DNA of 64,000 nt from Thermoplasmatales archaeon SG8-52-3 (GTDB taxonomy: Archaea > Thermoplasmatota > E2 > DHVEG-1), in the NCBI GenBank assembly GCA_001595915.1, contig LSSG01000053.1, forward strand, positions 3,416 to 67,415, read 5' to 3'. Positions 2,043 through 17,875 of this stretch are shown here, piece after piece. The position numbers and the translations under genes are program-made. The notes below the pieces were generated by a model that had not been told where the DNA came from, did not search any database, and was given only the letters and a program-made list of their open reading frames with translations. The stretch's first letter is position 1; the number at the start of each line of letters is the position of its first letter.

Positions 2043-3173
2043 CTAATATTCTGAAACATATTTTGCTATATTTACCCCATTAGTAATCCATGCTTTTTTC
2101 TCACAACAATATTTTAAGATTTTTTCATATAATTTAGTCCATTCTGAATCAAATAACCCTGCATAAGAAACTGGATAAGAAAAAGTCCAATTATGCCAAA
2201 GAATTGTTAAAACACCATTTAATTTTTCAATATTATCTATTAATTTTTTTAATAAAATCCAAGCTTCTTTTACACCAATTTTCATATATGAAAACATGGT
2301 AATATCTGCAACACAAACTGGAATTTCTAAAATATCAATTTTTTTATTTTGATTTAAATCATATGGAAAAAAAGGATGACACATTCCATTTCTGAAACCT
2401 ATCATGTCATAATATCCATAACTTGAATCATAAAAAAATCCTGCTTGATTTAATATTTCCCAAGTTCTTGGAATTTTAAATCTTAATATATGATTTCTAA
2501 CCCCAATAACTCTTTTTTTAGTAATTTTTTCTAACTTTTTTTTCTCTTTTTTTATTTTTTCTAAATCATCAAAACTATAAAATCCAGTATGGAGTCCAAT
2601 TTCACAATTATTGTCTATTATATCTAATATTTCATCCTGAATTTCATCTATGTGATATTTTTTACCAAAAATATCTTGCTGAGTTGCAAGAAAAAAGAAT
2701 GTTGAAATAGCATTGTATTTTTCTTCAAGATTGATAATTTTTTTAAAATTAATGTAAGGTTTTTCTTTTTTTAAATATGAAAAAATAAATTTTTTAGTAC
2801 CAAAATAATCCCTATGAAAGGGATAAGGAATAATTGAACGGAATAATTGTTTACCTGTAATATTTATGTCATCAACGTCATGGGATAAAAAAACTGCAAA
2901 TTTTTTTCCATCTTCATATTCAAAATTAAATCCTTTTTTAATTAAATATTCTGAAACAATTGGAATTAATACATTCTTTTGTTTTGTTAATTTATAAGAT
3001 AAAATATCATTTTTTATTGATTCACTTATCCTATATTCTTCTTTTTTTAAAAAAAGATTCCATATATCTTTGTCTTTTTTTAGTTCATTATGTATATAAT
3101 TCCAGTTTGGCTTTGAATTAGAATGTGAAGCCATCAAATTAGTAATATAACACATAATCAAATATTCTTTCAT
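2043..3173 (-). CDS. Polysaccharide deacetylase (CE4/NodB family)
   Basis: FLSHDVDD and LHTGFY motifs typical of the NodB homology domain. 376 aa. Confidence 0.6.
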   Translation of the reverse strand: MKEYLIMCYITNLMASHSNSKPNWNYIHNELKKDKDIWNLFLKKEEYRISESIKNDILSYKLTKQKNVLIPIVSEYLIKKGFNFEYEDGKKFAVFLSHDVDDINITGKQLFRSIIPYPFHRDYFGTKKFIFSYLKKEKPYINFKKIINLEEKYNAISTFFFLATQQDIFGKKYHIDEIQDEILDIIDNNCEIGLHTGFYSFDDLEKIKKEKKKLEKITKKRVIGVRNHILRFKIPRTWEILNQAGFFYDSSYGYYDMIGFRNGMCHPFFPYDLNQNKKIDILEIPVCVADITMFSYMKIGVKEAWILLKKLIDNIEKLNGVLTILWHNWTFSYPVSYAGLFDSEWTKLYEKILKYCCEKKAWITNGVNIAKYVSEY

Positions 3174-3259
3174 TTTTAATTTTTAAAAATCAAAAAATAT
3201 TGTTTCAATAAATCTTTAATAAAAGTATAAATAACATTATCTAATTTTAAAGACAAAAA

Positions 3260-4486
3260 ATGAAAAAGTATTCTATATTAATAAAAAGTGCTCACTGGAC
3301 ATGTTTACCAAATTTAATTTTTTGTTCAATGTTATATCAATATTTTTTAAAAAATGGTCATAGAATAACAAAAGAACCAACAAAAGCAGATTTTATTATA
3401 ATTAGTACCTGTGGAGTATTGACACAAATCGAAGATAAAACTATTGATCTATACAATAATTATAAAAATTTGAAACGAAAAGATGCTCAAATAATTATGT
3501 TTGGTTGCCTTTTAAAAACTAATAAAGAAAAAATAAAAAATTTAGATTTTTATCATATTGAATTCGAAGAGACTTATAAACTAGATTTATTGTTTTATTC
3601 AAAAATTAAGTTTGAAAAAATAAAACCAATTTGTGATGAAGAAACTAAGACTAAATTGCTTTATAATGAAAAAACCCATGGTTTTGTAAAAAGATATCCA
3701 TTTTTTTTAACTAAAATGTTTTTTCCATTTTCAAAAAAACTTAAGTTAAAATATAAAATAATAATTAAAGATCTTACTCATAAAGATAGAATTTTTGTTT
3801 TAATTAGTAGAGGTTGTATTAGTAATTGTAATTATTGTGTTATTAAAAAAGCCAAAGGACGATTAGTATCTAGAACTATTAAAGACATTTTAAATGACAT
3901 AGAATCAATATATGATCCAAAGAAAACACTTTTTTTAGTAGCCGATGACTGTGGTTGTTATGGATTTGATTTAAAAACAAATTTAATAGACTTAGTATAC
4001 AAAATAAATAAAAAATTTCCAAAAACAAAAATTGACTTAAATTATCTCAATCCAACAATTTTACAAAATGATGCTGATAAATATGTACAGTTATTCAAAG
4101 ATATTTCTTTTAGATATGTTATAGTACCTTTACAAAGTGGATCCAATAAAATAATTAAAAAAATGAATCGTAAATATGATGTTAAAAAAGTTTTAGCTTT
4201 TGCTGATAAAATTAAGAAAATATCTCCAGATACAATTCTATATGCACATTTTATTATAAACTATCCAGAAGAAAACATAATAGATTTTTTAAAAACTTTA
4301 ATTACATTATTTCATTTCGATGTTCCATTACCATTTATTTATACTCCAATGAAAGGAACAAATAGTTTTTCTACAATAAAAATAGTTTCAAAAATAAAAG
4401 GTAGATTAAAATGGTATGTTTTTATGAGCATTTCCAATATAGTTATTTTATTTAAAACAATTAAATATCAAAAATTAGTTGAATGA
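3260..4486 (+). CDS. Radical SAM enzyme with MiaB/MTTase-like N-terminal domain
   Basis: N-terminal TC...ADFIIISTCGV...GCL pattern (MTTase_N-like), then CxxxCxxC (GCISNCNYC). No obvious TRAM domain. Confidence 0.6.
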   Translation: MKKYSILIKSAHWTCLPNLIFCSMLYQYFLKNGHRITKEPTKADFIIISTCGVLTQIEDKTIDLYNNYKNLKRKDAQIIMFGCLLKTNKEKIKNLDFYHIEFEETYKLDLLFYSKIKFEKIKPICDEETKTKLLYNEKTHGFVKRYPFFLTKMFFPFSKKLKLKYKIIIKDLTHKDRIFVLISRGCISNCNYCVIKKAKGRLVSRTIKDILNDIESIYDPKKTLFLVADDCGCYGFDLKTNLIDLVYKINKKFPKTKIDLNYLNPTILQNDADKYVQLFKDISFRYVIVPLQSGSNKIIKKMNRKYDVKKVLAFADKIKKISPDTILYAHFIINYPEENIIDFLKTLITLFHFDVPLPFIYTPMKGTNSFSTIKIVSKIKGRLKWYVFMSISNIVILFKTIKYQKLVE

Positions 4487-4519
4487 CAATTAGTTAAAAA
4501 ATATAAAGTAGGTATTATC

Positions 4520-5110
4520 TTGCCGAATTTCCTAAATGATAGAGATTTAAAATTGAATATTTCAACATTAATAATATACAATAGTAAACCTTATTCTTTT
4601 TTTAAGAAAATTTCACCATGGTATTGGTTCATCCGCCCAATGACAAAATATTTACTAAATAATTATTCCAATAATAAACTAATTGGAGTTGAGATAGGAG
4701 TAGAATATGGTCTTAATGCAAAGACAATGCTAAAATTCCTTTCTATTGAGAAATTATTTTTGATTGATCCTTATAAAGATAAACTTGGAGATGAATGTTT
4801 TAAACAAACAAAAATTTTTTTAAGAAAATATAGTAATAAAATTATATTTATTAGAAAATCCTCTGAATCTGCAGTAAACGATATTCCAAATAATTTAGAT
4901 TTTGTTTATATTGATGGAAGCCATGAATATAAATTTGTAAAAAAGGATATTGAACTTTATTATGATAAAATAAAATCAGGTGGATTAATTGGAGGTCATG
5001 ATTTTTGGGCAGATCATATAGGAGTTTGTAAAGCAGTACTTGAATTTGCAAATGAAAATAAATTAAAAATTAATGGAAATTTAACAGATTGGTGGATTAT
5101 AAAAAAATAA
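4520..5110 (+). CDS. Class I SAM-dependent methyltransferase (TylF/CmcI, Methyltransf_24-like)
   Basis: GVEIGVEYG, DGSHEY and GGLIGGHD motifs as in macrocin-O-methyltransferase-like sugar O-methyltransferases. Confidence 0.55.
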   Translation: MPNFLNDRDLKLNISTLIIYNSKPYSFFKKISPWYWFIRPMTKYLLNNYSNNKLIGVEIGVEYGLNAKTMLKFLSIEKLFLIDPYKDKLGDECFKQTKIFLRKYSNKIIFIRKSSESAVNDIPNNLDFVYIDGSHEYKFVKKDIELYYDKIKSGGLIGGHDFWADHIGVCKAVLEFANENKLKINGNLTDWWIIKK

Positions 5111-5124
5111 TATAATGGCATATT

Positions 5125-6090
5125 ATGTTTGAACAAACATTTAGATTGTTAGATTTAGTAAAATTATATGGTTTTGCTACCATATATAAAAGACCATTAA
5201 GATATACTCATGAAATTACAAGAAGGTGTAATCTTTATTGTCCTAACTGTTATGTTTATAATTTTAACCCAGATTATAAAAATAAAACAAGATTAGAAAT
5301 ATTTGACGAAGTAAAAAAAAATGAGCTAACATTAGAAGACTATAAAAAAATTTTTCAAGAAGAAAAGAAAAAGGGTTGCAGATCAGTTTTTTTAATAGGT
5401 GGCGAACCGACTTTACGAATGGATATCATAAAAATTGCTTATGGATATTTTGGAAGAAATACATCTCTTATTACAAATGGTTTAATTAAAATTCCAACAA
5501 TTTTAAAGATTCCTTTTGCAGTTTCCATTGATGGTGGGAAAATAGTTCATGATGAAATTCGTGGAAATGGTACTTGGAATCGTATTTTTGAAAACTATTC
5601 AGATGATTATAGAGTGATGCTATCATGCTGTTTAAGAAAAAATACTGCAAATCAAATTCAAAAAGTAATTGATGAATGGATTGATACAGATGTTTTTGGA
5701 GTTTCATTTTTTTTCTTAACACCTTCAAAAAAAAATTCTTCTATTACAGTTATTGGAAACGAAAGAAATTATGCAAAAAAAGAATTACATAGGGTTGTTG
5801 ATGAATATCCGAATTTTGTTAGAATGACGCATCAACTAGTTGACCTTTTAGGTGAATTGAATAAAGGTCAATGTCCTGTTTTTAATTATTCATTATGGTA
5901 TGATTATAAAGGTGATTTAATTGATTATTGCCTACTTGGAAAAGATGCTGATTGTAATCTTTGTGGTTGTATTTCACCTCTTTATTTAAAAATGTTTTCA
6001 AGTTGGTGGAAATTATTAAATAAAAAATCCCTAGATATATTTACTCTACCTCGCGATATAAAACAATGTAGAAAGAGAGGACAAAAATAA
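5125..6090 (+). CDS. Radical SAM/SPASM-domain protein
   Basis: CNLYCPNC (CxxxCxxC) near the N-terminus. C-terminal Cys-rich auxiliary-cluster region (CPVFNYSLWYD...CNLCGC). Confidence 0.7.
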   Translation: MFEQTFRLLDLVKLYGFATIYKRPLRYTHEITRRCNLYCPNCYVYNFNPDYKNKTRLEIFDEVKKNELTLEDYKKIFQEEKKKGCRSVFLIGGEPTLRMDIIKIAYGYFGRNTSLITNGLIKIPTILKIPFAVSIDGGKIVHDEIRGNGTWNRIFENYSDDYRVMLSCCLRKNTANQIQKVIDEWIDTDVFGVSFFFLTPSKKNSSITVIGNERNYAKKELHRVVDEYPNFVRMTHQLVDLLGELNKGQCPVFNYSLWYDYKGDLIDYCLLGKDADCNLCGCISPLYLKMFSSWWKLLNKKSLDIFTLPRDIKQCRKRGQK

Positions 6091-6103
6091 TAGGAAATAG
6101 TTT

Positions 6104-7447
6104 ATGAAAATATTATTAATTTGGCCGAGAAAATCATCATTGCTTTTTGATAATTCAAATATGGTAAAAATTTTTTCTATGTTTCTTTCAAGAATGAGTT
6201 TCCGTCGAAAACCAATAGTTTATTCAATTTTATCTGCTCTTACTCCTAATCATCATACTATTGATATTGCTGAAGGAGAAATAAATGATATAAATTTTAA
6301 CAAGGTTTATGACTTAGTTGGAATAACAAGTGTTACATCAAATGCTATTTTGTCTTATGAGATTGCAGATAAATTTAGAAAGCATAAAATACCTGTAGTT
6401 ATTGGAGGCCTTCATCCTTCTGTTTATCCTGAGGAAGCAAAAAAACATGCAGATTCTGTTGTAATAGGCGATGCTGAAGAAATTTGGCCAAAATTATTAA
6501 AAGATTTAGAAAACAATAAATTAAAACCATTCTATTATCAAAATCGTGTTGTTAATCCTAAACTAATTCCTCCATCTAAAAATGTTTATAAAAAAGGAAC
6601 TGGAATAGGCATTCAAGCAACAAGAGGATGTCCACAGAAATGTGAATTTTGCTCTATTCCAAATACTAAATTTGGAAATATTTATACAAAAAGACCAATT
6701 GAAAATGTAATAGAAGATATCAATAAATGTGAAAGAAAAATCTTTATTTTTCAAGATAACTCTTTAACTGTTGATACAAATTATACAAAAAAACTTTTTA
6801 GCAAGCTTATTGGAATAAATAAGAAATTCCTAGCATATGGAAATATTGACATTTTAGGAAAAGATGAAGAACTTTTAAAATTAGCAAATGAAGCTGGTTG
6901 TGTAGGATGGTTGATTGGTTTTGAGTCTGTATCTCAAGCATCAATAGATAGTATTGGAAAAAAAACAAATATTGTTAAAAATTATTTATCTGCTGTAAAA
7001 AAAATACATGATTTTGGTATGATTATTGAGGCTTCATTTGTATTTGGATTTGATCATGATAAAAAAGATATTTTTAATAAAACAGATGAATTTATTAGAT
7101 TGAGTGAAATAGGAATTCCTTTTGGTTTAATACTTACACCATATCCTGGAACAATACTATATAATCGATTGGAAAGAGAAAAAAGGATATTAACAAAAGA
7201 TTGGGATAAATATGATGGACTAAATGCAGTATTTAAACCTAAACATATGAGTTCTGAAACGCTTTTAAATAATACTGAGGCTCTAAATTTAAAATGGCAT
7301 AAAGGTTTGAATAGTATTGAAAGAATTATAAAAAATATGAGTTTTGGGTTTTATCCATTTACTGAAACATTAGTTATAGAAATTTATTGGAAATTAATTT
7401 ATCAAAGAATTGGAAAATTAAGTAATTTATATAGTAAAATACTCTAA
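6104..7447 (+). CDS. B12-binding (class B) radical SAM enzyme
   Basis: N-terminal cobalamin-binding Rossmann-like region (VGITSVTS...VVIGGLHPS), followed by TRGCPQKCEFC. Confidence 0.75.
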   Translation: MKILLIWPRKSSLLFDNSNMVKIFSMFLSRMSFRRKPIVYSILSALTPNHHTIDIAEGEINDINFNKVYDLVGITSVTSNAILSYEIADKFRKHKIPVVIGGLHPSVYPEEAKKHADSVVIGDAEEIWPKLLKDLENNKLKPFYYQNRVVNPKLIPPSKNVYKKGTGIGIQATRGCPQKCEFCSIPNTKFGNIYTKRPIENVIEDINKCERKIFIFQDNSLTVDTNYTKKLFSKLIGINKKFLAYGNIDILGKDEELLKLANEAGCVGWLIGFESVSQASIDSIGKKTNIVKNYLSAVKKIHDFGMIIEASFVFGFDHDKKDIFNKTDEFIRLSEIGIPFGLILTPYPGTILYNRLEREKRILTKDWDKYDGLNAVFKPKHMSSETLLNNTEALNLKWHKGLNSIERIIKNMSFGFYPFTETLVIEIYWKLIYQRIGKLSNLYSKIL

Positions 7448-7449
7448 AG

Positions 7450-8454
7450 ATGTCAAATACTGATAAAAAATCTGAAATAATTCAAAGCTTTAATAATTAC
7501 ATTTTTTCAAAAAAAACATTTGATATTAAAGATACAGTTTTAGTTGCTGGTTCCCCAAGGTCAGGAACAACATGGATTACTGAATTATTAGCATATTTAC
7601 CAAAATATACCTATATTTTTGAACCTTTAAACCCGGTATGGAATCCTGAAATATTTAAAATTGGATTTTCTTCAAGAATGTATATTTCAAAAAATACTAA
7701 ATGGAATGAAGGAAAAAATTATCTTCTAGATGTTTTTACTGGAAAAACATCAAATTTACCAATAAAGGGAAGTATATCGAAAAGCATTATACCTGGTTTT
7801 TCATTAAATAAATTCTTTCATTTTTTATTAGGAAATAAGCTTATTATAAAATCTACAAATATGAATAGAATGCTTTCATGGATTAACAATAATTTTCAAT
7901 TACGCGATATCGTTTTAATTATTAGACATCCATGTGCATGTATTGCTTCTCAGATGAAGTCAGGTCTTTATGGATATCGAACTAATAAATCTCCTTATAT
8001 AGATATTATACCTACAAAAGAAATAATTTTAGATGAAATTCAAAAAATTTCTGAATTAAATGATTCGTTAATTAAAAAGATTAAAAATATCGATAAAAAA
8101 GAAGAGATATTTGCTACTGCATGGTGTCTTGATAATTATTTTTTAATTTCTCAAAAAAATTTTTACCCATGGAAATTAATTTTTTATGAAAAATTAATAA
8201 AAAATTCTGATGAAGAAATTATTAATCTTTTTAAAAAAATTGGGGAGAAAAAAGTACCTAAAAATGTGTTTAAAAATTTAAAAAAGCCAAGTTCAGTAAC
8301 AATGAAAGAAGATAAGAAATATATTAATCATCCAAATAAACAATTATCAAAATGGAAAGATTATCTTTCAGAGAAACAAATAAAGAGAATATTAAATGTA
8401 TTATCTATCTTTGAAATCGATTTATATAATGAAAATCTTGAACCTAATTATTAA
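7450..8454 (+). CDS. Sulfotransferase (PAPS-dependent, Sulfotransfer_3-like)
   Basis: 5'-PSB loop AGSPRSGTTW near the N-terminus. About 330 aa. Starts 3 nt after the upstream gene. Confidence 0.65.
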   Translation: MSNTDKKSEIIQSFNNYIFSKKTFDIKDTVLVAGSPRSGTTWITELLAYLPKYTYIFEPLNPVWNPEIFKIGFSSRMYISKNTKWNEGKNYLLDVFTGKTSNLPIKGSISKSIIPGFSLNKFFHFLLGNKLIIKSTNMNRMLSWINNNFQLRDIVLIIRHPCACIASQMKSGLYGYRTNKSPYIDIIPTKEIILDEIQKISELNDSLIKKIKNIDKKEEIFATAWCLDNYFLISQKNFYPWKLIFYEKLIKNSDEEIINLFKKIGEKKVPKNVFKNLKKPSSVTMKEDKKYINHPNKQLSKWKDYLSEKQIKRILNVLSIFEIDLYNENLEPNY

Positions 8455-8466
8455 ATAAAATATTAA

Positions 8467-9675
8467 CTATTTTTTTCTAATGTCCCCAACTTCAAAACCA
8501 CTATAAAATGTTGTTCTATCATTTTTTAATAGTTCAATTACCATATTCTTATCTTGATGAAATTCTAAAATATCTTTTGGTATGTATCTATCTTTTCTTG
8601 TTATTGAATAAAAAATTCTACTTTTATTTTTTCCGACTCTTATAATTTCTATTAAATTTTTTTTAAAATTTTTATCATCAATCCAATCAAAAATATTTGA
8701 AAGAAAAAATTTTGAAATTGAATTATCTTTAATTTCTTTTAAAGTATCAAATACTGATGCAGTTTTTATTTCTATTTTTTTAATTCTTTCTTTTAAAATC
8801 TTATAATTTTCTTGCTTTAAATAAGGGTAGTAATGGTTTTCATTTAATAAATATCCTAACAAAATTAATGATAAAAAAGAATTGTATTTTATTGGTATTT
8901 TTGTGTATATATCCTCAATTTTTTTTATATGATTTTTTGTAAAATTAACATTTTTAATATATCCTAAATAATCAGATTTTTTACGACCATGATAAAATTC
9001 AATTAAAAATCTAAAACATAATGATATCCTAATAAAATACTTATTATAGCCAAAAAAATGACCTAGTTGCCATGGCATACCATAGATATGTTTAAAAAAA
9101 TAGTCAGTTTGTTCCTTAATTGTTTCGCATAAAAAAAAATTTTTAATTAACTTTTCACCTTTTAAGAATCTTAAAAATAAACCAAAATTTTTAACATTTT
9201 GTTCTCCAACATTTAATAATCCTTTTTTAATTACAAAAGAATTTTTATCCCAAAAATTTCTAGCGTTTTTATTTAAATCTTTTTTTATAGAATTATAAAT
9301 TGATAAATTATTTTTTAAAGATTTTAAACCCATTAGTTTTAAAAAATCTAAATATTCAAGATTTTTTATTGCAGTTATTTTTAATTCTAATAAATAATTT
9401 TGAAAAGGATTAAAATCAACAGATATTATCTTTTTTGGATTATGTAAAAGTAAATTTAGAATGTTACAACCATTAGAAGTAATAGAAAATACTACATCAT
9501 TACTATTTATTTTGAGAGCTTTTTCAATTTGTAAAATATCTTCCCAACAATTGTAAAAATCTATCTTATTCATTATTTTTTGATCTGAAAAACTAAGTTT
9601 AGTGATATTTTTATCTTCCATTCCAATTTTAGAATCAATTTTTAATATAATATTTTTAAGCTTTGAAATATTCAA
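8467..9675 (-). CDS. DUF3419/BtaA-like SAM-dependent 3-amino-3-carboxypropyl-transferase-like protein
   Basis: FYNCWEDILQ...VFSITSNGCNILNLL...ISVDFNPFQ resembles the conserved N-terminal region of the DUF3419 (BtaA) family. About 400 aa. Confidence 0.45.
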   Translation of the reverse strand: MNISKLKNIILKIDSKIGMEDKNITKLSFSDQKIMNKIDFYNCWEDILQIEKALKINSNDVVFSITSNGCNILNLLLHNPKKIISVDFNPFQNYLLELKITAIKNLEYLDFLKLMGLKSLKNNLSIYNSIKKDLNKNARNFWDKNSFVIKKGLLNVGEQNVKNFGLFLRFLKGEKLIKNFFLCETIKEQTDYFFKHIYGMPWQLGHFFGYNKYFIRISLCFRFLIEFYHGRKKSDYLGYIKNVNFTKNHIKKIEDIYTKIPIKYNSFLSLILLGYLLNENHYYPYLKQENYKILKERIKKIEIKTASVFDTLKEIKDNSISKFFLSNIFDWIDDKNFKKNLIEIIRVGKNKSRIFYSITRKDRYIPKDILEFHQDKNMVIELLKNDRTTFYSGFEVGDIRKK

Positions 9676-9688
9676 AAATTGTAAAATA

Positions 9689-10840
9689 ATGAAAATTACC
9701 CTGATTGGTACGTTACCACCTATAAAAGCGCTAAGCCCCTATTGTTACCATTTAGCTGATGCATTATCAAAAAAAGTAGATTTAGATTTTTTTAATTTTA
9801 AAAATAGTCTACCAGAATCTTTATATCATGGAGGAATGACAGAGAAAAAAAATGAAAAAATTCAAACTCCTAACTTAAAAATTAAAACTATTATTAATTG
9901 GTGGAATCCATTTTCATGGATTAAAGTTGGAATTGTAGTAAAAGGGGATATTGTTCACGTACAACATTGGTCTTTGTATTCAGGATTAATTTATTGTTTT
10001 ATTTTACCAATTACTAAATTGCGTGGTAAAAAAAATGTATTAACAATTCATAATATTACTCCACATACAGATGATTTTTTAACAAAATTTTTTGATAAAA
10101 TGATTAATAAAATTATTCTCCCGTATACAAATCATATTATTGTTCATAACAAGAGAAATAGAAATAAATTTTTTGAACTTTATAGTATAGATAAAAAAAT
10201 TGTGACAATAATATCTCATGGCTCTATAATGCCTTATAATAAAATAAAAAATATTTCAAAAACTGATGCTAGAAAAAAATTAAATATATCACCTGAGAAA
10301 AAAGTGATATTATTTTTTGGTTATATATGGGACTATAAGGGTTTAGATATTTTACTTTCATCATCAAAAATCATTAAAGAAAAAATTAAGAATTATTTAC
10401 TCTTAATTGCTGGTCAACCCTTAAAAGACTGGAAAAAATATGATAAAATTATTTTGAAAGATAATTTAAATGAGATAATTCTGAAAAAATTAGAATATAT
10501 TTCTGATTCAGAAATTGAATATTATTTTTCAAGTAGTGATCTTGTTGTATTGCCATATAAGAAACATCCGTTTGATACTCATGGTGGAGTAGGAGCTTTA
10601 GCTTTATCATTTAACAAACCAATTTTAGTAACAGATGTTGGTGGATTACCTGAATATGTAAAAAACAATAAAGTTGTTGTTGAGCCTAATAATGAAAAAG
10701 AATTAGCTGAAAAAATAATATTTGTATTAGAAAATAAAGCTTTGTTAAAAAAACTTTCAAATGATTCAAAACTGTTATCAAAAGAATTGAGCTGGGATAA
10801 AATCGCTGATCAAACAATAGAAATTTACACTAAAACATAA
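9689..10840 (+). CDS. Glycosyltransferase family 4
   Basis: C-terminal GGVGALALSFNKPILVTDVGGLPEYV (GT4 E-x7-E region). Start set at ATG 9689 (MKITLIGTLPP), not the track's upstream start that overlaps the neighbour. Confidence 0.8.
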   Translation: MKITLIGTLPPIKALSPYCYHLADALSKKVDLDFFNFKNSLPESLYHGGMTEKKNEKIQTPNLKIKTIINWWNPFSWIKVGIVVKGDIVHVQHWSLYSGLIYCFILPITKLRGKKNVLTIHNITPHTDDFLTKFFDKMINKIILPYTNHIIVHNKRNRNKFFELYSIDKKIVTIISHGSIMPYNKIKNISKTDARKKLNISPEKKVILFFGYIWDYKGLDILLSSSKIIKEKIKNYLLLIAGQPLKDWKKYDKIILKDNLNEIILKKLEYISDSEIEYYFSSSDLVVLPYKKHPFDTHGGVGALALSFNKPILVTDVGGLPEYVKNNKVVVEPNNEKELAEKIIFVLENKALLKKLSNDSKLLSKELSWDKIADQTIEIYTKT

Positions 10841-10847
10841 CTAAGGA

Positions 10848-11822
10848 TTATTTTCGTCTTTTTGATTCAATTAAATTTTTTAAATAAGTTAAATTTTGTT
10901 TGAAAAAATAATTTGGTAGTCTATTAAAATATGACATTCCAAAATAGCAATCAATAGTGCAATGATTACAAAAATTATATTTTCCAGCCTTTTCAAAAAG
11001 TTGGTACCATTCTTTTGAATTATAGAGAGTATGTAATTTTCCATCGATTTTGATTTTTTTATTATAATTATGAGTACATGGAATAATTAAAGTATCATCT
11101 GGTCCAATATCTATTGTAGATAATCCTGCTTGACATTTAGATTTTGATGGATTATTTCCACCTCTTTTATGAAAATCAAGTTGAGGTAGACTCATTCTTA
11201 TGTATGGATTCCAAAAATTTTTCTTAATTTTTTTTATATTGTCTTTATTTAACGATTTATTGCCAAAATATGAAAAACAAGGGTGAATATAGGTTGTTAT
11301 TTTATTAGAATCAGCAAAATTTACAATTTCTTGTAAATTTTTTATGTTTTTATCTGTTACAGTATATAATAAACATATTTCTTGTTTATTATTTATTGCA
11401 ATATTAATGCCTTCTATAAGTTTATCATATCCATCGATACCTCTAATTTTTTTATATTCTTCTTTAGAGGTTGTATCAAATGAAAAATATGTTCTACTAG
11501 GAAGGTTTTTTATTTCTTTAAATCTATCCTTATAAAAATAACCATTTGTTGAAAGTTTTACAAAAAAGCCTAGTTGTTTTGCAGAGGCAAGAATTTGTGG
11601 TAAATCTTTGTTTAATAATGGTTCACCACCAGTAAAATCAATAAACTTTACTCCTATTTTTTTTAAATCAACTAAATTTTTTTTTACATCTGTAAATTTT
11701 GCATCAAAAATATTCTTGTATGAATTATTTCTCCAAAAATTACAAAATTCACATTTTGAATTACATCTATAAGTGACCCAATAATTGCAAAAAAAAGGTT
11801 TTTTATTTATTAAAAAGGTCAT
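10848..11822 (-). CDS. Radical SAM/SPASM(twitch)-domain protein
   Basis: YRCNSKCEFC motif and FTGGEPLL. C-terminal extra Cys cluster (CQAG...IPC...CNHCTIDC). Confidence 0.7.
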   Translation of the reverse strand: MTFLINKKPFFCNYWVTYRCNSKCEFCNFWRNNSYKNIFDAKFTDVKKNLVDLKKIGVKFIDFTGGEPLLNKDLPQILASAKQLGFFVKLSTNGYFYKDRFKEIKNLPSRTYFSFDTTSKEEYKKIRGIDGYDKLIEGINIAINNKQEICLLYTVTDKNIKNLQEIVNFADSNKITTYIHPCFSYFGNKSLNKDNIKKIKKNFWNPYIRMSLPQLDFHKRGGNNPSKSKCQAGLSTIDIGPDDTLIIPCTHNYNKKIKIDGKLHTLYNSKEWYQLFEKAGKYNFCNHCTIDCYFGMSYFNRLPNYFFKQNLTYLKNLIESKRRK

Positions 11823-11993
11823 TTTTTATCGTATTTTATAAGTTATAAATCTTTTTAAATTTGCTGTTTAAAAAATTGTTATATAACAAATTAGTATCAT
11901 TTCTTTTAAAAAACAACAAAAATCTTTATACATAATTAATTATCATAAATTTAAAAAAAATTCATAACAAAATAAAATTTTGGGAAAAATAAT

Positions 11994-13061
11994 ATGAAGA
12001 TTCCATGGTCAATTCCAAATATTCAAGATAAAGAAATAGAATCAATAAATAGAGTGCTAGATTCTGGATGGCTTTCAATGGGTAAAGAAGTAAAAAAATT
12101 TGAAGAAAAAGTTGCTTCTTATCTAAAAATAAAATATTCAATTTCAGTTAATAATGGTACATCTGCTTTAGATCTTGCTTTAAAGTGTTTAGATCTCAAT
12201 ACAAAAGATGAGATCATAATCCCTGCCTTAACCTATATTGCGACTGGAAATGTTGTTTTATATAACAATTGTATACCTGTATTTGTTGATATTGATAATA
12301 CTTTGAATATAGATACCACCCTAATTGAAGAAAAAATAACAAAAAAAACAAAGGCAATAATTAATATTGATCTAGGTGGAAATCCAACAAATTATAAAAA
12401 TTTATTAAAAATATCTGATGAAAATTCTTTACCTTTAATTGTTGATGGTGCACAATCTTTTGGTTCAGAATATCAAAATAAAAAATGTTGCACACATGGT
12501 CTAATAAATACAACCAGTTTTCATGCAGCAAAAATAATAACTACAGTTGAAGGAGGAATGATTTTTACTAACGATAAAAAAATAAATGATAAAGCAAATA
12601 TTTTAAGAAATCAAGGTGAAACATCAAAATATATACACAGCTATCTTGGTAACAATTATAGAATGACTGATTTAGCAGCTTCAATTGGGAATTCTCAGAT
12701 GGATAGGTTTGAAACTACTCTAGAAGAACGAATAAATAAAGCAAAATATTATAAACAAAATCTAAAAAATGTAGATTATCCTGAAGAATTACAAAACACT
12801 AAAAATTGTCATTTTTTCTTTTTAATTTTAGTTAAAAATAGAAATAAATTAAACAAATGCCTAAATAAAAATGGAATAGAAACACGAATAACTTATCCTT
12901 TACCGATAAATGAACAAACTATATTTAAAAAATATAGTAAACAAGATTATATTTCAGCAAAAAAATTTTCAAAAAAAGTAATATCATTACCTATTCATCA
13001 TAAACTAACAATAGACGAACAAGATTATATTATTAAGAAAATTAACAATTTTGATAGGTGA
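11994..13061 (+). CDS. DegT/DnrJ/EryC1/StrS-family PLP-dependent sugar aminotransferase
   Basis: NGTSALDLAL and SFHAAKIITTVEGG motifs. Confidence 0.85.
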   Translation: MKIPWSIPNIQDKEIESINRVLDSGWLSMGKEVKKFEEKVASYLKIKYSISVNNGTSALDLALKCLDLNTKDEIIIPALTYIATGNVVLYNNCIPVFVDIDNTLNIDTTLIEEKITKKTKAIINIDLGGNPTNYKNLLKISDENSLPLIVDGAQSFGSEYQNKKCCTHGLINTTSFHAAKIITTVEGGMIFTNDKKINDKANILRNQGETSKYIHSYLGNNYRMTDLAASIGNSQMDRFETTLEERINKAKYYKQNLKNVDYPEELQNTKNCHFFFLILVKNRNKLNKCLNKNGIETRITYPLPINEQTIFKKYSKQDYISAKKFSKKVISLPIHHKLTIDEQDYIIKKINNFDR

Positions 13062-13066
13062 TATAA

Positions 13067-13999
13067 ATTAATATATTAGTTACTGGAGGTGCTGGATATA
13101 TTGGTAATATATTAGTACCTGAATTATTAAAAAAGAAATATTATGTTAGAGTATTTGATAATTTAACGTATGGTATCGATGGTATTCTTCCTCATTTTAG
13201 TAATAATAATTTTGATTTTACCAAGGGAGATATAACAAACATTGTTGACATTAAAAAATCACTTGATGATATCGATTTTGTAATACATTTAGCAGCTATT
13301 GTTGGCTATCCAGCATGCAGAGCTAGACCCGATCTTGCACATAAGGTTAATTTTATTGGAACAAAAAATCTATTAAGTTATTGTAAAGTCCCATTTTTTT
13401 ATCCATCTACTGGCAGTAGTTATGGTAAAGTTGAAAAAATATGTACTGAAGAAACTCAATTAAAACCATTAACCGAATATGGTGAAACTAAAACTAATGG
13501 TGAAGAGATTGTAAAACAATATTCAGATTATGTTATATACCGTTTTTCAACAGGTTTTGGATTATCACCAAGACTTAGACTTGATCTTCTTGTTAATAAT
13601 TTCTTAATAAAAGCAATGCGCGAAAGGGAATTAATTGTGTATGAAAAAAATTATTGGAGATCTTTTATTCACGTCAAAGATATTTCTAGAAGTATTATTT
13701 TTGCTATTGAAAACTTTGAAAAAATGAATGGAGAAATATACAATGTAGGATCTGAAAAATTATGTCTAACAAAGGAAGATGTAGCCTTAAAAATTAAAAA
13801 TTATGTTGATTTTCATTTAAAATTTGCTGAATTTGGAAAAGACCCAGATAAAAGAAATTATAAGGTAAGTTTCAAAAAGATAAAATCATTGGGTTTTAAT
13901 ATAAAATTTGATTTAGATTATGGTATTAAAGAAATGATTAAGGCATTTCAATTTATTGAGTTAAAAGATGATTATTTTAATTATAAGGTTTTTAAATGA
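13067..13999 (+). CDS. NAD-dependent epimerase/dehydratase (extended SDR); apparent non-canonical AUU start
   Basis: The open frame encodes (I)NILVTGGAGYIGN...YGETK, with the Rossmann motif and YxxxK. There is no ATG/GTG/TTG until codon ~184. AGGTGA at 13056..13061 sits 5 nt upstream of ATT 13067. Confidence 0.7.
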   Translation: MNILVTGGAGYIGNILVPELLKKKYYVRVFDNLTYGIDGILPHFSNNNFDFTKGDITNIVDIKKSLDDIDFVIHLAAIVGYPACRARPDLAHKVNFIGTKNLLSYCKVPFFYPSTGSSYGKVEKICTEETQLKPLTEYGETKTNGEEIVKQYSDYVIYRFSTGFGLSPRLRLDLLVNNFLIKAMRERELIVYEKNYWRSFIHVKDISRSIIFAIENFEKMNGEIYNVGSEKLCLTKEDVALKIKNYVDFHLKFAEFGKDPDKRNYKVSFKKIKSLGFNIKFDLDYGIKEMIKAFQFIELKDDYFNYKVFK

Positions 14000-14448
14000 A
14001 TAATAATTTGTTAATTTTTAGACCTTTTAATAAGAAAGACATAAATGAAGTTCTTGATCTATTGATAAATCTCAGTATAACTAATAAAGAATTCTTTCAT
14101 CCCTATAAATTTGATAAAAAAACCCTTTTAAAAAATTATAATTCTGATGATTTTTATTTTGTTATGGTAATTAATAATGTTATTATTGGATACTCTTTTT
14201 TAAGATTCTTTGGATATAAAATTCCAAGTTTTGGTTGCTGTATTAAAAATGGATATGAGAATAAAGGTTATGGTGAAAAAATCACAAAGTTAACCATTAA
14301 AAAGGCAAAGGAACTTGGATATAAAAAAGTAATTTTAAAAACATATAAAAAAAATATATTTGCAAAAAAAATCTATGATAAAGTTGGTTTTAAAGTTATT
14401 GGAGAAACAGATGATAAAAGACAGTATAAAATGGAACTGATTTTGTAA
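13996..14448 (+). CDS. GNAT-family N-acetyltransferase
   Basis: GYENKGYGEKI...GFKVIG acetyl-CoA binding region. Its start overlaps the epimerase stop (ATGA). Confidence 0.7.
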   Translation: MNNNLLIFRPFNKKDINEVLDLLINLSITNKEFFHPYKFDKKTLLKNYNSDDFYFVMVINNVIIGYSFLRFFGYKIPSFGCCIKNGYENKGYGEKITKLTIKKAKELGYKKVILKTYKKNIFAKKIYDKVGFKVIGETDDKRQYKMELIL

Positions 14449-14650: not shown

Positions 14651-14845
14651 ATGAAAATAGAAGTTTCGAATTTAACTTATAATAAATTAAAAACTATAAA
14701 AGAAAATGAGTTTGAAGGATATGATTTTGATATGATGATAAAATATCTATTAACATTTTATAACCAGAATAAAAAAAATCATCAATTATTTAAAAAGATG
14801 GAAAAAGAAGTAGAAAATCTTATGAAATTGGCAAAGGGAACTTAA
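14651..14845 (+). CDS. Hypothetical 64-aa protein
   Basis: ORF preceded by GAGGATAAA-ATG. No Cys. Function unknown. Confidence 0.3.
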   Translation: MKIEVSNLTYNKLKTIKENEFEGYDFDMMIKYLLTFYNQNKKNHQLFKKMEKEVENLMKLAKGT

Positions 14846-14960: not shown

Positions 14961-16763
14961 CTGAAAATAAACATTTATTCTAAAGGATTATCTGTTTTTT
15001 TCATTCTTACAATTATTTCCCCTATAACTGTTAGTTATATTGATAAGGATATGATGATCAATGTAAACTCCAATGATAAAACTGAGGTTAATAATATAAT
15101 AGCCAATGGTTTTTTGAATTATTCTAAAGGTGCAGCAGACTGGCTAATAAATGAATCTATTGAAATAGGAGACGGGTATAAATGGCCTGATTCAGTTGGT
15201 AGTTCTTATTACTATACTGATCTATATTATGGTTCACCAGGTATTGTTACATTATTTTCAGAACTATATAAAATAACAGGTAAGGATGAATATTTTCAAT
15301 ATACGGTTGGAGGGACAGAATGGTTGATTGAAAAAGCTATTTCTGAAGCAGGTGGTTATAAATGGCCTGAGAAGGAAGATTTACCTTTGTATTATACTGG
15401 ATTATATGTAGGAGCTGCTGGAACCGGTGAATCATTTCTCAATCTATATAAAACCCTATCAGACACATTTTATCTAGAATATGCTTCAGGAGCTGCTAAT
15501 TGGTTATTGAGTGTTGCAGTATTTGAAAATCAAAATGAATGTAAATGGCCAAGCTCTCAATATGCTACCGACTATTGTACTGATATTATATATGGAGCAG
15601 CTGGTATCGGCTTATTTTTATTGCAAATGTATGATTTGACAAATAACATAGAATATCTAAATTACTCACGATATGCAGGAAACTGGTTAATTAATCAAGC
15701 AAAACCTTCAGGTAGTGGTTATAAATGGGAGGTATCAAACAATTGTCCATATATTTATACAGGTTTTTCACATGGTGCTGCTGGAATTGGATATTTTCTT
15801 GCTAAATTATTTGAACATACAAATAACTCACAATTTCTCGAATATGCAAAAGGTGCTGCCCAGTGGCTAATTGATATTGCAGTTACCGAATCAGGTGGTT
15901 GTAAATGGTGGTCTAAAGAAGGTGATACTCCAAGTTATGCTACAGGATGGTGTCATGGTCCTGCTGGAACATGTTTGTTATTTATGAAACTCTATCAAAT
16001 TACCTCTGAAAATATTTATCTAACTTATGCAGAAATGGGTAGCACATGGCTTATTAGTCTTGCCATTCCAAGCGAAGGAGGATACAAATGGCCACATTAT
16101 CAAGGATCCCCAAATTATGATACAACCATTTGTCATGGAGCAGCTGGAATTGGTGATTTTTTTCTAAGGATGTCTGATCTTACAAATGAAGGTTTTTATT
16201 ATGACTATGCTAAAGGTGCAGCAGAATGGTTAAAGAGTGTTGCCGATACTTCTGCTGGAGATTATCGTTGGGCAACTTTTGGTTCATATTATACAGGTTT
16301 TTCTACAGGTACATCTGGGATAGGGCTCTTTTTCTTAAGAATCTATAATCCACCAGACAAACCTAATCTAGTTTGTTCTGGTAACCTAAATTGGGTAAAT
16401 GTGAAACCCAATTCAAAAATTATAGGTTATTTTCAAGTCGAAAATATTGGTGACCCTAATTCATTATTGTCTTGGGAGATAATTGAACGGCCAGAATGGG
16501 GTAATTGGTCATTTACTCCAGATAGTGGAATTGATTTAATGGCTAATGAAAAAATAAATATTACTGTAGAGTTAATTGCTCCAAACGAAAAAGAAAAGGC
16601 GTATACAGGTAAAGTAATCCTAGTTAATAGTGAAGATTTAAATGATACTTGCAGCATTGATGTGTCACTTAGTACACCAAAAAATAGAGGTGTATATCAA
16701 CTTTATTTCATACGATTGCTTGAACGTTTTATAATGCTTGAAAGACTGCTGAATCTTATATAA
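14961..16763 (+). CDS. LanC-like (lanthionine-synthetase-C-like) seven-repeat alpha-toroid protein with predicted N-terminal signal/anchor and C-terminal beta-sandwich module
   Basis: Seven ~58-aa repeats (YxxAxGAAxWL...GGYKWP...YTGxxHGAAGIG). The LanC Zn/catalytic motifs are in canonical order: GFSHGAAG, GWCHGPAG, TICHGAAG. A first ATG lies at 15051. An in-frame hydrophobic leader (KINIYSKGLSVFFILTIISPI) begins at CTG 14961, 7 nt after GGGAGG. Confidence 0.7.
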   Translation: MKINIYSKGLSVFFILTIISPITVSYIDKDMMINVNSNDKTEVNNIIANGFLNYSKGAADWLINESIEIGDGYKWPDSVGSSYYYTDLYYGSPGIVTLFSELYKITGKDEYFQYTVGGTEWLIEKAISEAGGYKWPEKEDLPLYYTGLYVGAAGTGESFLNLYKTLSDTFYLEYASGAANWLLSVAVFENQNECKWPSSQYATDYCTDIIYGAAGIGLFLLQMYDLTNNIEYLNYSRYAGNWLINQAKPSGSGYKWEVSNNCPYIYTGFSHGAAGIGYFLAKLFEHTNNSQFLEYAKGAAQWLIDIAVTESGGCKWWSKEGDTPSYATGWCHGPAGTCLLFMKLYQITSENIYLTYAEMGSTWLISLAIPSEGGYKWPHYQGSPNYDTTICHGAAGIGDFFLRMSDLTNEGFYYDYAKGAAEWLKSVADTSAGDYRWATFGSYYTGFSTGTSGIGLFFLRIYNPPDKPNLVCSGNLNWVNVKPNSKIIGYFQVENIGDPNSLLSWEIIERPEWGNWSFTPDSGIDLMANEKINITVELIAPNEKEKAYTGKVILVNSEDLNDTCSIDVSLSTPKNRGVYQLYFIRLLERFIMLERLLNLI

Positions 16764-16870
16764 TAAGAATTTTAAGTTAAAAAACCTGTCAAAAAATTCT
16801 ATAAAAATTAATGGTAAAAAGATGTTTGTAGTTTATAATTCTAGCAGTTTTTCTAAGATTTGAAAAAAAT

Positions 16871-17875
16871 TTATAAAAATATTTTTCTTGGTTTTACAAT
16901 AGTGCACTCAGCACATACTGGTATTTTATCAAACCTTTTAGAGTGAATTAATTTTCTTATATTTTGATATTTTTCACTTCTCCAGATTTCTTTTATTGAA
17001 GAATCTTTTACATTTCCAAGAATTATTCTTTTAGAATAATCATTACAGCATAATATTACATCACCATTTGCTAAAATATTAAAAATTGAGAAAAGATGAT
17101 GACATCTATGAACTAAATCTTTTCCAAAATTATATAATAGATTTTGGACAAAATTTGGATAATAATTATTCATTGCTAACTCATTAAAATTTGCTAAATC
17201 TCCACTTCTACTATTAATTCTTGTGAAATCAATTGGAATGCCTCTATTTTTCCAATAATTTTCAAAATCATAAATTTCTTTTAAATTTTTATTTTGAATT
17301 ACATAACCAACAGATATCCTTCCAGAATAATTAGAGTTTAATACACATTCAATATTTTCTAAAAGTTTCTTAAAATTTAGTTGTTTTCTAATTTCTTCAA
17401 AAGTTTCTCTTGTATATGCATCAATACTAAAATGAATCTCATCAACTTTTGAATTTTCAAGTTCTTTGATTTTGTTCTTGTTAAAAAGAGTTCCATTTGT
17501 GACAAGTGCTGTTGATAAATTATTATTTGTTAATTTTTTTGCAAGTTCTAATTTTTTAAAAATATCTTTATCAAGAAGAGGTTCATTTTGAAGATATAAC
17601 CATAACCAAATAAAATTACTATTTTCATCAGCAATTTCCTTTAAAATCTTGTTGTATAACTTATCAGACATTTTTTTTGTTTTTGAGTATTTCTGATAGC
17701 TCCTAGGACACATAATACATTTTCCATTACATGCATCAATTGTTTGAATTTGAAAAACTGATGGAAATTGATACACTTTCTTTGTAATATTATATTGAAA
17801 AATCCTACCTAATAATATAAAGAGATGCATATATTTTTTCAAGTATATATTAAATTTATAGTCTAATTGACTCAT
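16871..17875 (-). CDS. Radical SAM/SPASM-domain protein
   Basis: CNGKCIMC motif. C-terminal SPASM-like CCNDYS...GNVKDSSIKEIW...CAEC. Confidence 0.7.
   Translation of the reverse strand: MSQLDYKFNIYLKKYMHLFILLGRIFQYNITKKVYQFPSVFQIQTIDACNGKCIMCPRSYQKYSKTKKMSDKLYNKILKEIADENSNFIWLWLYLQNEPLLDKDIFKKLELAKKLTNNNLSTALVTNGTLFNKNKIKELENSKVDEIHFSIDAYTRETFEEIRKQLNFKKLLENIECVLNSNYSGRISVGYVIQNKNLKEIYDFENYWKNRGIPIDFTRINSRSGDLANFNELAMNNYYPNFVQNLLYNFGKDLVHRCHHLFSIFNILANGDVILCCNDYSKRIILGNVKDSSIKEIWRSEKYQNIRKLIHSKRFDKIPVCAECTIVKPRKIFL

Follow-up and report, generated by a model that had tools for sequence, protein, structure and literature searches.

A recurrent gene cluster rich in radical SAM enzymes from sediment archaea, with a possible role in isoprenoid lipid and head-group tailoring

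Gene content and borders of the cluster

The 64,000-nucleotide stretch of contig LSSG01000053.1 analysed here (positions 3,416 to 67,415 of the forward strand; hereafter the window) belongs to Thermoplasmatales archaeon SG8-52-3 (assembly GCA_001595915.1), and its LanC-like and 431-aa ORFs match proteins recorded for that archaeon without a difference. The DNA is archaeal, with an overall GC content of 27.6%, and the SG8-52 genomes have been placed in Marine Benthic Group D (here MBG-D)/Thermoprofundales (PMC6461988). At its left end lies a conserved gene cluster rich in radical S-adenosylmethionine (SAM) enzymes, for which we tentatively propose a role in lipid tailoring. The conserved unit consists of window positions 1-14448 plus the DNA to the left of the window, and the window holds the right half of a set of approximately 27 kb. 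When the block is joined to overlapping contigs, the full set comprises about 25 genes, ten of them encoding radical SAM enzymes.

All open reading frames (ORFs) in positions 1-22546 were scanned with Pfam and NCBIfam, and nearly all of the domains named in the original prediction, which had been made from the DNA alone, were recovered. The genes of the block are the following:

1-583, minus strand: phosphodiesterase of the alkaline-phosphatase superfamily (PF01663); the N-terminal 194 of 288 codons lie in the window and the gene runs off its left end
678-1973, minus strand: AttH/CrtC/kievitone-hydratase-fold protein, double lipocalin, ~427-431 aa, assigned by fold match
2043-3173, minus strand: homologue of CE4-type (carbohydrate esterase family 4)/VimE-like sugar N-deacetylases (NF053580, Polysacc_deac_1)
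3260-4486, plus strand: MiaB/RimO-like two-cluster radical SAM enzyme lacking a TRAM domain (UPF0004 and Radical_SAM)
4520-5110, plus strand: class I SAM methyltransferase, Methyltransf_24 (PF13578, E 6.8e-14)
5125-6090, plus strand: 321-aa radical SAM protein with a Cys-rich (SPASM/twitch-like) C-terminus (Radical_SAM, E 9e-12)
6104-7447, plus strand: B12-binding radical SAM enzyme (B12-rSAM) of 447 aa, here g06 (PF02310 and PF04055)
7450-8454, plus strand: sulfotransferase of the 3'-phosphoadenosine-5'-phosphosulfate (PAPS) type (Sulfotransfer_1/3, E 3e-5; PRSGTT loop)
8467-9621, minus strand: DUF3419 (BtaA-family, SAM-dependent) protein, 384 aa by the gene call on L008 (PF11899, E 2.9e-59)
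9689-10840, plus strand: retaining glycosyltransferase of family 4 (GT4; Glycos_transf_1, E 7.6e-25)
10848-11822, minus strand: 324-aa radical SAM protein (PTO1314-like) with a C-terminal Cys cluster (Radical_SAM, E 4e-23)
11994-13061, plus strand: DegT/PseC/LegC-type sugar aminotransferase (PF01041, E 1e-106)
13067-13999, plus strand: extended short-chain dehydrogenase/reductase (SDR) of the NDP-sugar 4,6-dehydratase/epimerase class, 310 aa; intact ORF with a non-canonical start
13996-14448, plus strand: GNAT N-acetyltransferase, the last gene of the conserved block (PF00583, E 1e-9)

Three small radical SAM/SPASM (twitch) proteins had been proposed for the region. All three are radical SAM enzymes, but Pfam assigned a SPASM domain only to the one encoded at 16871, whereas those at 5125 and 10848 possess conserved C-terminal Cys clusters.

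The phosphodiesterase gene is whole on contig L008 (1612-2478, minus strand), where it matches Phosphodiest, and it has a 69% identical orthologue in the cluster on L100. L008 corresponds to the window shifted by +1895 nt, and the contig starts 1895 nt before window position 1. Upstream of the window it carries the rest of the phosphodiesterase gene, a gene encoding a GT1/28-like glycosyltransferase, and the start of a gene encoding a 471-aa B12-rSAM. The left end of L008 matches contig L085 by overlap, with 97% amino-acid identity, and L085 contributes the 471-aa B12-rSAM, three MiaB-like genes, a class I methyltransferase, two more B12-rSAMs, and a helix-turn-helix (HTH) regulator, which lies at the edge of the cluster. 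The leftward operon is composed, in order, of the genes encoding the deacetylase, the AttH-like protein, the phosphodiesterase, the GT1/28-like enzyme, and the 471-aa, HpnJ-like B12-rSAM. On the other side, the genes located 3' of the GNAT gene differ among L087, L100, and L102, so position 14448 was taken as the right border. The extent 2043-17875 proposed earlier must consequently be shifted to the left. Intergenic gaps within 678-14448 do not exceed 172 nt, and no transmembrane segment was found in any protein of the block.

The block is compositionally distinct. Its GC content is 23.2% against 28.9% in the comparison, and its tetranucleotide L1 distances are 0.22-0.29 against 0.10-0.18. 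Other copies of the cluster reside on contigs spanning 26-43.5% GC. The distinct composition of the block, the wide range of GC content among the copies, and the high identity across phyla suggest horizontal spread of the cluster.

Recurrence in other archaea and metagenomes

A search with the MiaB-like protein returned more than 500 homologues of approximately 405-425 aa, all without TRAM and mostly from archaeal metagenome-assembled genomes (MAGs). The contig represented by L006/L087 (SG8-52-2-like) is collinear with window positions 678-14448, with 59-84% identity. The same families, rearranged and with 46-72% identity, were found in L007 (Promethearchaeota, GCA_054382875.1) and L009 (another euryarchaeal MAG, GCA_026394455.1), each of which bears four MiaB-like genes in tandem and four or five B12-rSAMs, together with a class I methyltransferase and an additional sulfotransferase. 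When metagenomes were scanned with the 321-aa radical SAM protein as the anchor, 18 further loci were obtained, and all those with sufficient flanking DNA carry the same set. Taken over the Promethearchaeota MAG, the other euryarchaeal MAG, and about 16 metagenome contigs, the set shows 50-85% identity. The cluster is a real, co-inherited unit of anoxic-sediment archaea, present in MBG-D/Thermoprofundales, Promethearchaeota, and other Euryarchaeota.

Orthologues in the cluster loci have identities of 54-59% for the AttH-like protein, 54-71% for the VimE-like deacetylase, 59-76% for Methyltransf_24, 66-77% (across phyla) for the 321-aa and 65-74% for the 324-aa radical SAM proteins, 48-61% for the sulfotransferase, 49-63% for DUF3419, 63-71% for GT4, 70-79% for DegT, and 84% for the SDR. 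Among the loci examined, only MiaB-like members at least 41% identical to the window gene at 3260-4486 lie in the full cluster; a homologue with 37% identity, on L086, sits in unrelated surroundings.

A different arrangement was observed on L105 (4267-15888), where two MiaB-like genes and three B12-rSAMs are joined by a pair of ATP-grasp genes and by a CapK-like ligase; a UbiA gene and a weakly matching gene resembling geranylgeranyl reductase (GGR) lie nearby. It carries no GT4, DUF3419, sulfotransferase, or amino-sugar gene. Since this MiaB-like/B12-rSAM set occurs without the usual accessory genes, the radical SAM core may be modular and pair with different accessory sets. Full-text literature searches yielded no description of the cluster or of arrays of TRAM-less MiaB paralogues, and the set recurs as a unit, in agreement with the earlier proposal of an undescribed system. 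The comparison of gene neighbourhoods likewise shows that the radical SAM and sulfotransferase genes recur together, while the LanC-like gene originally included with them does not.

Radical SAM enzymes

The protein encoded at 3260-4486 matches PF00919 (UPF0004; E 3.4e-13) in addition to Radical_SAM, and scores 185 bits with TIGR00089, for which the cutoff is 251. Among 117 homologues, the auxiliary-cluster residues Cys15, Cys51, and Cys83 are conserved in 92%, 100%, and 100%, respectively, and the radical SAM triad C186/C190/C193 in 100%; Cys125 and Cys231 are additional and also conserved. The AlphaFold2 (AF2) model (mean predicted local distance difference test score, pLDDT, 92.8) found MtaB, MiaB, and RimO as its top folds in Foldseek, with template-modelling (TM) scores of 0.72-0.74. 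The protein therefore shares with MiaB, RimO, and MtaB the three auxiliary Cys in UPF0004, the CxxxCxxC core, and the fold. In contrast to those enzymes, it has no Pfam match to TRAM, scores below the subfamily cutoff, and is encoded by one to four tandem paralogues inside a biosynthetic cluster. In the AF2 model, a single C-terminal helix (residues 378-401) occupies the place where the TRAM barrel would be. Because this helix replaces the RNA-binding barrel, the protein is presumably an enzyme of the two-cluster methylthiotransferase type acting on a non-RNA substrate, and, in contrast to MiaB, RimO, and MtaB, presumably on neither RNA nor ribosomal protein S12. A 2026 review of lipid-modifying radical SAM enzymes includes no MiaB-type member.

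Judged by sequence searches, the 321-aa radical SAM protein is an isolated family and the most cluster-specific gene: a single orthologous 50% cluster was found among 1.84 billion representatives, and the next match scores 132 bits. Residues C250, C269, C277, C280, C282, and C315 are invariant in four aligned orthologues. The 324-aa protein scores 122 bits with TIGR03961 (cutoff 306), and its best sequence match in the PDB is the tetraether synthase 7tol (E 1e-13), restricted to the N-terminal core. Both small enzymes have conserved Cys-rich C-termini and weak matches to HpnH (cutoff 225).

Regarding the B12-rSAMs, the nearest NCBIfam models of g06 are BchE, HpnJ, and HpnR, all below cutoff (HpnJ, 83 bits), and g06 is 40-50% identical to B12-rSAMs adjoining AttH-like genes in Thermoplasmatota. 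The 471-aa B12-rSAM aligns over its full length to HpnJ and reaches 152.7 bits, the cutoff being 577.6. The solved relative nearest to g06 is AprD4, an aminoglycoside enzyme, and those nearest to the 471-aa protein are OxsB and TokK.

Sugar, transfer, and sulfation genes

The deacetylase homologue at 2043-3173 matches NF053580 (VimE) with E 3.5e-28 and 98.3 bits against a cutoff of 440, only its C-terminal 280 residues being aligned, and matches CE4 weakly (Polysacc_deac_1, E 1.3e-3). The Pfam match of the sulfotransferase is weak, but its PAPS loop PRSGTT is found at residue 36. The DUF3419 protein scores 201.6 bits against a gathering threshold of 28.2 and covers profile positions 12-380 of 385. 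The GT4 enzyme stays below cutoff with its nearest NCBIfam models, among them MshA, BshA, and lipid glycosyltransferases, and the GT1/28-like enzyme matches the macrolide-glycosyltransferase family TIGR01426 with 54 bits. DegT is PseC/LegC-like (260 bits), and the SDR scores approximately 95 bits with the NCBIfam dTDP-glucose dehydratase and GalE models.

The frame of the SDR gene, which translates as INILVTGGAGYIG, lacks an ATG, GTG, or TTG start. An ATT at 13067 sits 4 nt past the motif GGTGAT (13057-13062), with an alternative ATA at 13073; the orthologues in L006, L087, and L100 have ordinary start codons. A pseudogene was considered and rejected, given an unbroken ORF with 84% identity to the orthologues. 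Rare start use in an AT-rich genome, or point errors or mutations, could account for the non-canonical starts of this gene and of the LanC-like gene described below.

AttH-fold protein and its family context

The AF2 model of the protein encoded at 678-1973 (pLDDT 89.9) matched AttH (2ich, E 9e-15), kievitone hydratase (7a0q, E 4e-13), and 25-phosphosteroid lyase in Foldseek, and precomputed matches to PF07143 (CrtC_N) exist for approximately 14 members of the family. On the basis of this modelled fold, the protein is a candidate isoprenoid C=C hydratase. Sequence searches of the PDB with the AttH-like and DUF3419 proteins returned nothing useful.

Scanning species-representative genomes with the AttH-like alignment gave 75 loci, almost all in Thermoplasmatota MAGs, with paralogues 29-48% identical; the full cluster was absent from all 75. 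These paralogues are accompanied by a small class I methyltransferase (44/75), a UbiA prenyltransferase resembling digeranylgeranylglyceryl phosphate synthase (42/75), a PaaK/CapK-like ligase (25/75), an SDR (22/75), a DedA-like membrane protein (12/75), and GT4 plus a sulfotransferase (11/75). A g06-type B12-rSAM lies within 8 kb in 41 of the 75 loci, and in 13 loci it is situated directly upstream of the AttH-like gene on the same strand, with a gap of 26-137 nt. In the window, the AttH-like and B12-rSAM genes are 4 kb apart on opposite strands of one cluster.

Three modules were distinguished among L010-L084. The first is composed of B12-rSAM, AttH, PaaK/CapK-like, methyltransferase, SDR, and UbiA genes; the second of UbiA, AttH, ornithine carbamoyltransferase (OTCase), UbiA, methyltransferase, and SemiSWEET genes; and the third of a gene encoding a 544-aa radical SAM protein with a helix-hairpin-helix (HHH) domain, followed by AttH, DedA-like, GT4, and sulfotransferase genes. 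They look like further uncharacterised isoprenoid-lipid modification loci. A SemiSWEET/PQ-loop gene also occurs in the window (18188-18445, plus strand), 3.7 kb from the cluster, and in 19-20 of the 75 Thermoplasmatota loci a SemiSWEET gene is found no more than 8 kb from the AttH-like paralogue, usually in the order of the second module (L012-L071). This proximity could represent conserved synteny or a functional link.

Proposed function and comparison with known systems

From the established gene content, synteny, conservation, folds, and Cys motifs we infer the substrate, the step order, and every chemical step of the pathway proposed here. Our preferred reading, which we put a little short of probable, is that the cluster tailors an isoprenoid lipid, probably an ether-lipid core, and builds a modified head group of the amino-sugar or cyclitol type. 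An isoprenoid substrate is favoured because of the AttH/CrtC fold and the links that members of the cluster's protein families show elsewhere to UbiA, GGR-like, and DedA-like genes. The published Ted/Hgs pair and the full-length alignment of the 471-aa B12-rSAM to HpnJ count in its favour too. The MiaB-like/B12-rSAM set of L105 lies near UbiA and a weak GGR-like match, and L106 also has a weak GGR-like match. A polysaccharide or N-glycan product is disfavoured because no flippase, oligosaccharyltransferase, priming glycosyltransferase, or polymerase was found in the window block, L006, L007, L009, L085, L087, or L100.

According to this scheme, g06-type B12-rSAMs would desaturate or methylate inert isoprenoid carbons, and the AttH-fold protein would hydrate the resulting C=C to a tertiary alcohol, as in the Ted/Hgs pair discussed below. 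DegT, SDR, and GNAT would make an N-acetylated amino-deoxy sugar nucleotide, the phosphodiesterase would free an acceptor hydroxyl, the GT4 and GT1/28-like enzymes would attach the sugars, and the CE4/VimE-like enzyme would remove the N-acetyl group. The HpnJ/BchE-like 471-aa B12-rSAM and the two small radical SAM enzymes might then rearrange or cross-link the sugar, with sulfate, aminocarboxypropyl, and methyl groups being added by the sulfotransferases, the BtaA-family enzyme, and the methyltransferases. Finally, the four TRAM-less MiaB-like paralogues could act on a substrate other than RNA, introducing sulfur or methylthio groups at its unactivated carbons.

The closest precedent is the synthesis of hydroxylated glycerol dialkyl glycerol tetraethers (GDGTs), shown experimentally to depend on the B12-rSAM Ted (tetraether desaturase) and an overlapping AttH-like hydratase, Hgs; related B12-rSAMs methylate GDGTs, and Ted homologues are present in Thermoplasmatota and Asgard archaea (Garcia et al. 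2025, bioRxiv 10.1101/2025.10.20.683597). Both systems combine an AttH fold with B12-rSAMs, the likeness being at the level of family and fold. In contrast to Ted/Hgs, the AttH-like gene of the cluster is not beside the B12-rSAM but in an operon with the deacetylase, phosphodiesterase, and glycosyltransferase; about 20 further cluster genes have no counterpart; and g06 has 447 aa, whereas Ted homologues were limited to at least 500 aa (bioRxiv 10.1101/2025.10.20.683597).

The glycosyltransferase, N-deacetylase, and B12-rSAM genes of the leftward operon invite comparison with hopanoid synthesis. There, the logic of HpnI, HpnK, and HpnJ is that a sugar carried by a lipid undergoes deacetylation and is then rearranged by a radical SAM enzyme. 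In calditol formation (Cds), too, a radical SAM enzyme remodels a sugar bound to a lipid (2026 review of lipid-modifying radical SAM enzymes). The cluster shares with HpnH/I/J/K and calditol synthesis the logic of glycosyltransferase, N-deacetylase, and B12/radical SAM enzymes in one operon, but none of its scores comes near the equivalog cutoffs (577.6 for HpnJ, 225 for HpnH). HpnK is a deacetylase that we take to be of another type than the CE4/VimE-like one, and we know of no hopanoids in archaea. Regarding BtaA, the window protein is a full-length member of PF11899 with methyltransferases nearby. Members of this family transfer the aminocarboxypropyl group of SAM to a lipid hydroxyl in the synthesis of the betaine lipid diacylglyceryl-trimethylhomoserine (DGTS). 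No BtaB orthologue was identified in the cluster, which has only generic methyltransferases (Methyltransf_24, and a class I enzyme in L085), and to our knowledge no archaeal betaine lipid has been described.

Several points weigh against a lipid substrate. No cluster enzyme reaches the curated cutoff for a characterised lipid enzyme, the NCBIfam scores being far below threshold. The AttH fold also serves non-lipid natural products (kievitone, Diels-Alderases), and the links to UbiA, GGR-like, and DedA genes concern paralogous families (29-50% identity) and not the cluster itself, the GGR_cat matches being flagged as weak. Thermoplasmatota and Asgard archaea lack close Hgs homologues (bioRxiv 10.1101/2025.10.20.683597). 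In addition, the nearest solved B12-rSAM relatives, AprD4 and OxsB, act on sugars or nucleosides, and DegT/SDR/GNAT, GT4, and the VimE-like deacetylase are of the classic kinds that handle nucleotide sugars. It is therefore quite possible that the product is a soluble glycoside or glycan.

The same enzymes favour, as a first alternative, a modified nucleotide sugar destined for a cell-surface glycan (an S-layer N- or O-glycan or a capsule-like polymer), in which the radical SAM enzymes would C-methylate, epimerise, dehydrate, or thiolate the sugar and the sulfotransferase, the BtaA-like enzyme, and the methyltransferases would decorate it. DegT, the extended SDR, GNAT, GT4, and the VimE-like deacetylase are typical of sugar-nucleotide pathways and are shared with archaeal agl loci and the bacterial Wbp/Vim pathway. 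AprD4, OxsB, and TokK as nearest solved relatives of the B12-rSAMs point in this direction too, and low GC and variable gene order are typical for surface-glycan loci. In contrast to agl and Wbp/Vim, however, the cluster lacks AglB, a flippase, and a dolichyl-phosphate glycosyltransferase, and neither its ten radical SAM genes nor its AttH-fold protein belongs to the make-up of those loci. No membrane protein of any kind, and no flippase, polymerase, AglB, or priming phosphoglycosyltransferase, is encoded in the block or, for the loci examined, within 10 kb. The glycosyltransferases number only two, no part in sugar pathways is known for an AttH/CrtC-fold hydratase, and 55-85% cross-phylum identity is unusually high for surface-glycan loci. 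We therefore consider a surface glycan rather unlikely. Of the earlier suggestion that the cluster decorates a surface glycan or glycoprotein, the notion of a hybrid, undescribed tailoring system with sugar genes is retained, while the evidence leans to an isoprenoid lipid or a small-molecule glycoside.

It is quite unlikely that the cluster makes a diffusible small molecule, either aminoglycoside- or aminocyclitol-like or a glycosylated, sulfated terpenoid. A biosynthetic gene cluster of this kind would explain the combination of a GT1 enzyme (TIGR01426), a GT4 of the MshA/BshA type together with a deacetylase, and AprD4/OxsB-like B12-rSAMs, as well as the HTH regulator at the edge of the cluster, and AttH-fold enzymes are known from natural-product pathways. 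Nevertheless, a scaffold synthase (polyketide synthase, non-ribosomal peptide synthetase, terpene cyclase, or inositol-phosphate synthase) and an exporter are absent in every copy, and the set is kept across several archaeal phyla.

LanC-like gene and right flank

Three further features are located to the right of the block:

15051-16763, plus strand: LanC-like protein (LANC_like, E 3.7e-41), with the motifs SHGAAG, WCHGPAG, and ICHGAAG intact
16871-17875, minus strand: radical SAM and SPASM protein (Pfam), between the LanC-like gene and tRNA-Pro
17986-18060: tRNA-Pro (Rfam), 3.5 kb past the block

The original prediction described a tRNA-bounded island that included the first two. Only this one tRNA borders the region, and none was found in window positions 1-3400, L008, or L085. 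In L087, genes for tRNA-Ser(CGA) and tRNA-Glu(CTC) lie directly beyond the left end of the cluster (2222-2662). The placement is tRNA-adjacent, on the left side in L087 and 3.5 kb to the right in the window, rather than tRNA-bounded. The tRNA-Pro (51 bits, cutoff 29) was missed by a whole-window Rfam scan in gathering mode and recovered by a short-range scan based on E-values, so fast Rfam filters can overlook tRNAs in AT-rich sequence.

The LanC-like protein belongs to a large family. Homologues that are 72-81% identical and on long contigs were found in three differing contexts, which contain housekeeping genes, a major facilitator superfamily (MFS) transporter and an OTCase, or secreted peptidases, NosD/beta-helix proteins, and polycystic kidney disease (PKD) domain proteins. 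Genes for radical SAM, GT4, DUF3419, or sulfotransferase proteins are absent from all three, and none of approximately 20 loci carrying the cluster contains a LanC-like gene. Membership of the LanC-like gene was thus rejected, as its homologues stand by themselves among unrelated genes and the copies of the cluster lack it. The SPASM gene at 16871, whose best matches are a family resembling maturases of tungsten-cofactor oxidoreductases (93 bits) and spiro-SPASM, fares no better as a member, being outside the block and absent from all other cluster copies and from the LanC homologue loci.

Read in frame, the DNA upstream of the ATG at 15051 specifies a signal peptide with homology to the N-terminal sequences of relatives. 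As this conserved signal peptide would otherwise be lost, translation probably starts at CTG 14961, which is preceded by GGGAGG at a distance of 7 nt, or at ATA 14967. Residues 440-570 (window 16368-16763) form a beta-sandwich of approximately 130 aa with a hydrophobic tail (..RLLERFxxLERLLxL) that is common to other secreted proteins. The same element was observed at window positions 34172-34561, the C-terminus of the ORF at 34151-35287, and at L001 7123-7524 and 14537-15025, with 34-40% identity, and it resembles a C-terminal module for anchoring or sorting that is specific to this lineage. Given the signal peptide and a C-terminal module of secreted proteins, the LanC-like protein is predicted to be extracellular. 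Members of its family (P0002-P0120) have precomputed matches to toroids of glycoside hydrolase families GH127, GH88, and GH76, some being named 'rhamnogalacturonyl hydrolase YesR' by JGI; the protein may be an extracellular glycoside hydrolase or lyase-like enzyme and not a lanthionine cyclase.

With class I-IV lanthipeptide clusters the gene at 15051-16763 shares the LanC-like toroid and the Cys/His zinc-ligand motifs. In contrast to those clusters, the protein matches only the cyclase part of the LanM, LanL, and LanKC models, no dehydratase or kinase domain was found in the ORFs of positions 1-22546, there is no precursor, the protein is apparently secreted with a surface-protein C-terminal module, and the gene is not conserved with the cluster. 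The region resembles neither a lanthipeptide cluster nor an agl locus, as had been noted before; it lacks the dehydratase and precursor of the one and the AglB and flippase of the other. Maturation of a peptide or protein by radical SAM/SPASM enzymes and a LanC-like cyclase, in the manner of ribosomally synthesized and post-translationally modified peptides or of protein crosslinking, is very improbable: the Cys-rich C-termini of both small radical SAM enzymes, the genuine SPASM domain of the 16871 gene, the zinc ligands kept in the LanC-like protein, and the fact that RimO, a relative of MiaB, modifies a protein are outweighed by the separate occurrence and probable export of the LanC-like protein, the lack of LanB, LanM, LanKC, and LanL in the Pfam and NCBIfam scans, the restriction of the SPASM gene to this copy, and intergenic gaps too small for a precursor gene. 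The only small ORF, of 64 codons (14651-14845, plus strand), lies outside the block in the 600-nt gap between the GNAT and LanC-like genes; it is Lys/Glu-rich, without Cys or a Pfam match, and tBLASTN against the loci retrieved gave no match. The LanC-like gene here is no evidence for archaeal lanthipeptide-like chemistry.

Elsewhere in the window, an ORF of 1063 aa (52440-55631, plus strand) without a Pfam match at E <= 1e-5 was observed among genes encoding leucyl-tRNA synthetase, Pus10, TrkH, LonB, and the A-type ATPase.

Significance

The cluster is akin to radical-SAM-rich tailoring clusters for lipids or glycosides, and there is an appreciable chance that it performs new chemistry. MBG-D/Thermoprofundales and Promethearchaeota belong to the most abundant of the uncultured archaea in marine sediments, and next to nothing is known of their membrane lipids and envelope chemistry. 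For orphan lipid modifications of sediments, such as hydroxylated, methylated, unsaturated, or unusually headed tetraethers, a conserved cluster with ten radical SAM enzymes that is shared by these phyla is a candidate both concrete and clonable. The AttH-like family is a candidate for the missing Hgs function in Thermoplasmatota and Asgard archaea, which would extend Ted/Hgs chemistry to lineages reported to lack Hgs, and the cluster may in addition hold MiaB-type enzymes with a new class of substrate. It is conceivable, although unlikely, that the four MiaB-type enzymes are the first methylthiotransferases or sulfur-inserting radical SAM enzymes to act on isoprenoid chains or a lipid-bound sugar. 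Their partners would be B12-rSAMs like Ted, a hydratase like Hgs, a ring-remodelling enzyme like HpnJ, a transferase of the BtaA type, and sulfotransferases, and the product would be a sulfur-bearing, sulfated ether lipid with an amino-sugar or cyclitol head group in MBG-D and Asgard archaea. If this were true, sulfur-bearing ether lipids could be diagnostic biomarkers of uncultured sediment lineages.

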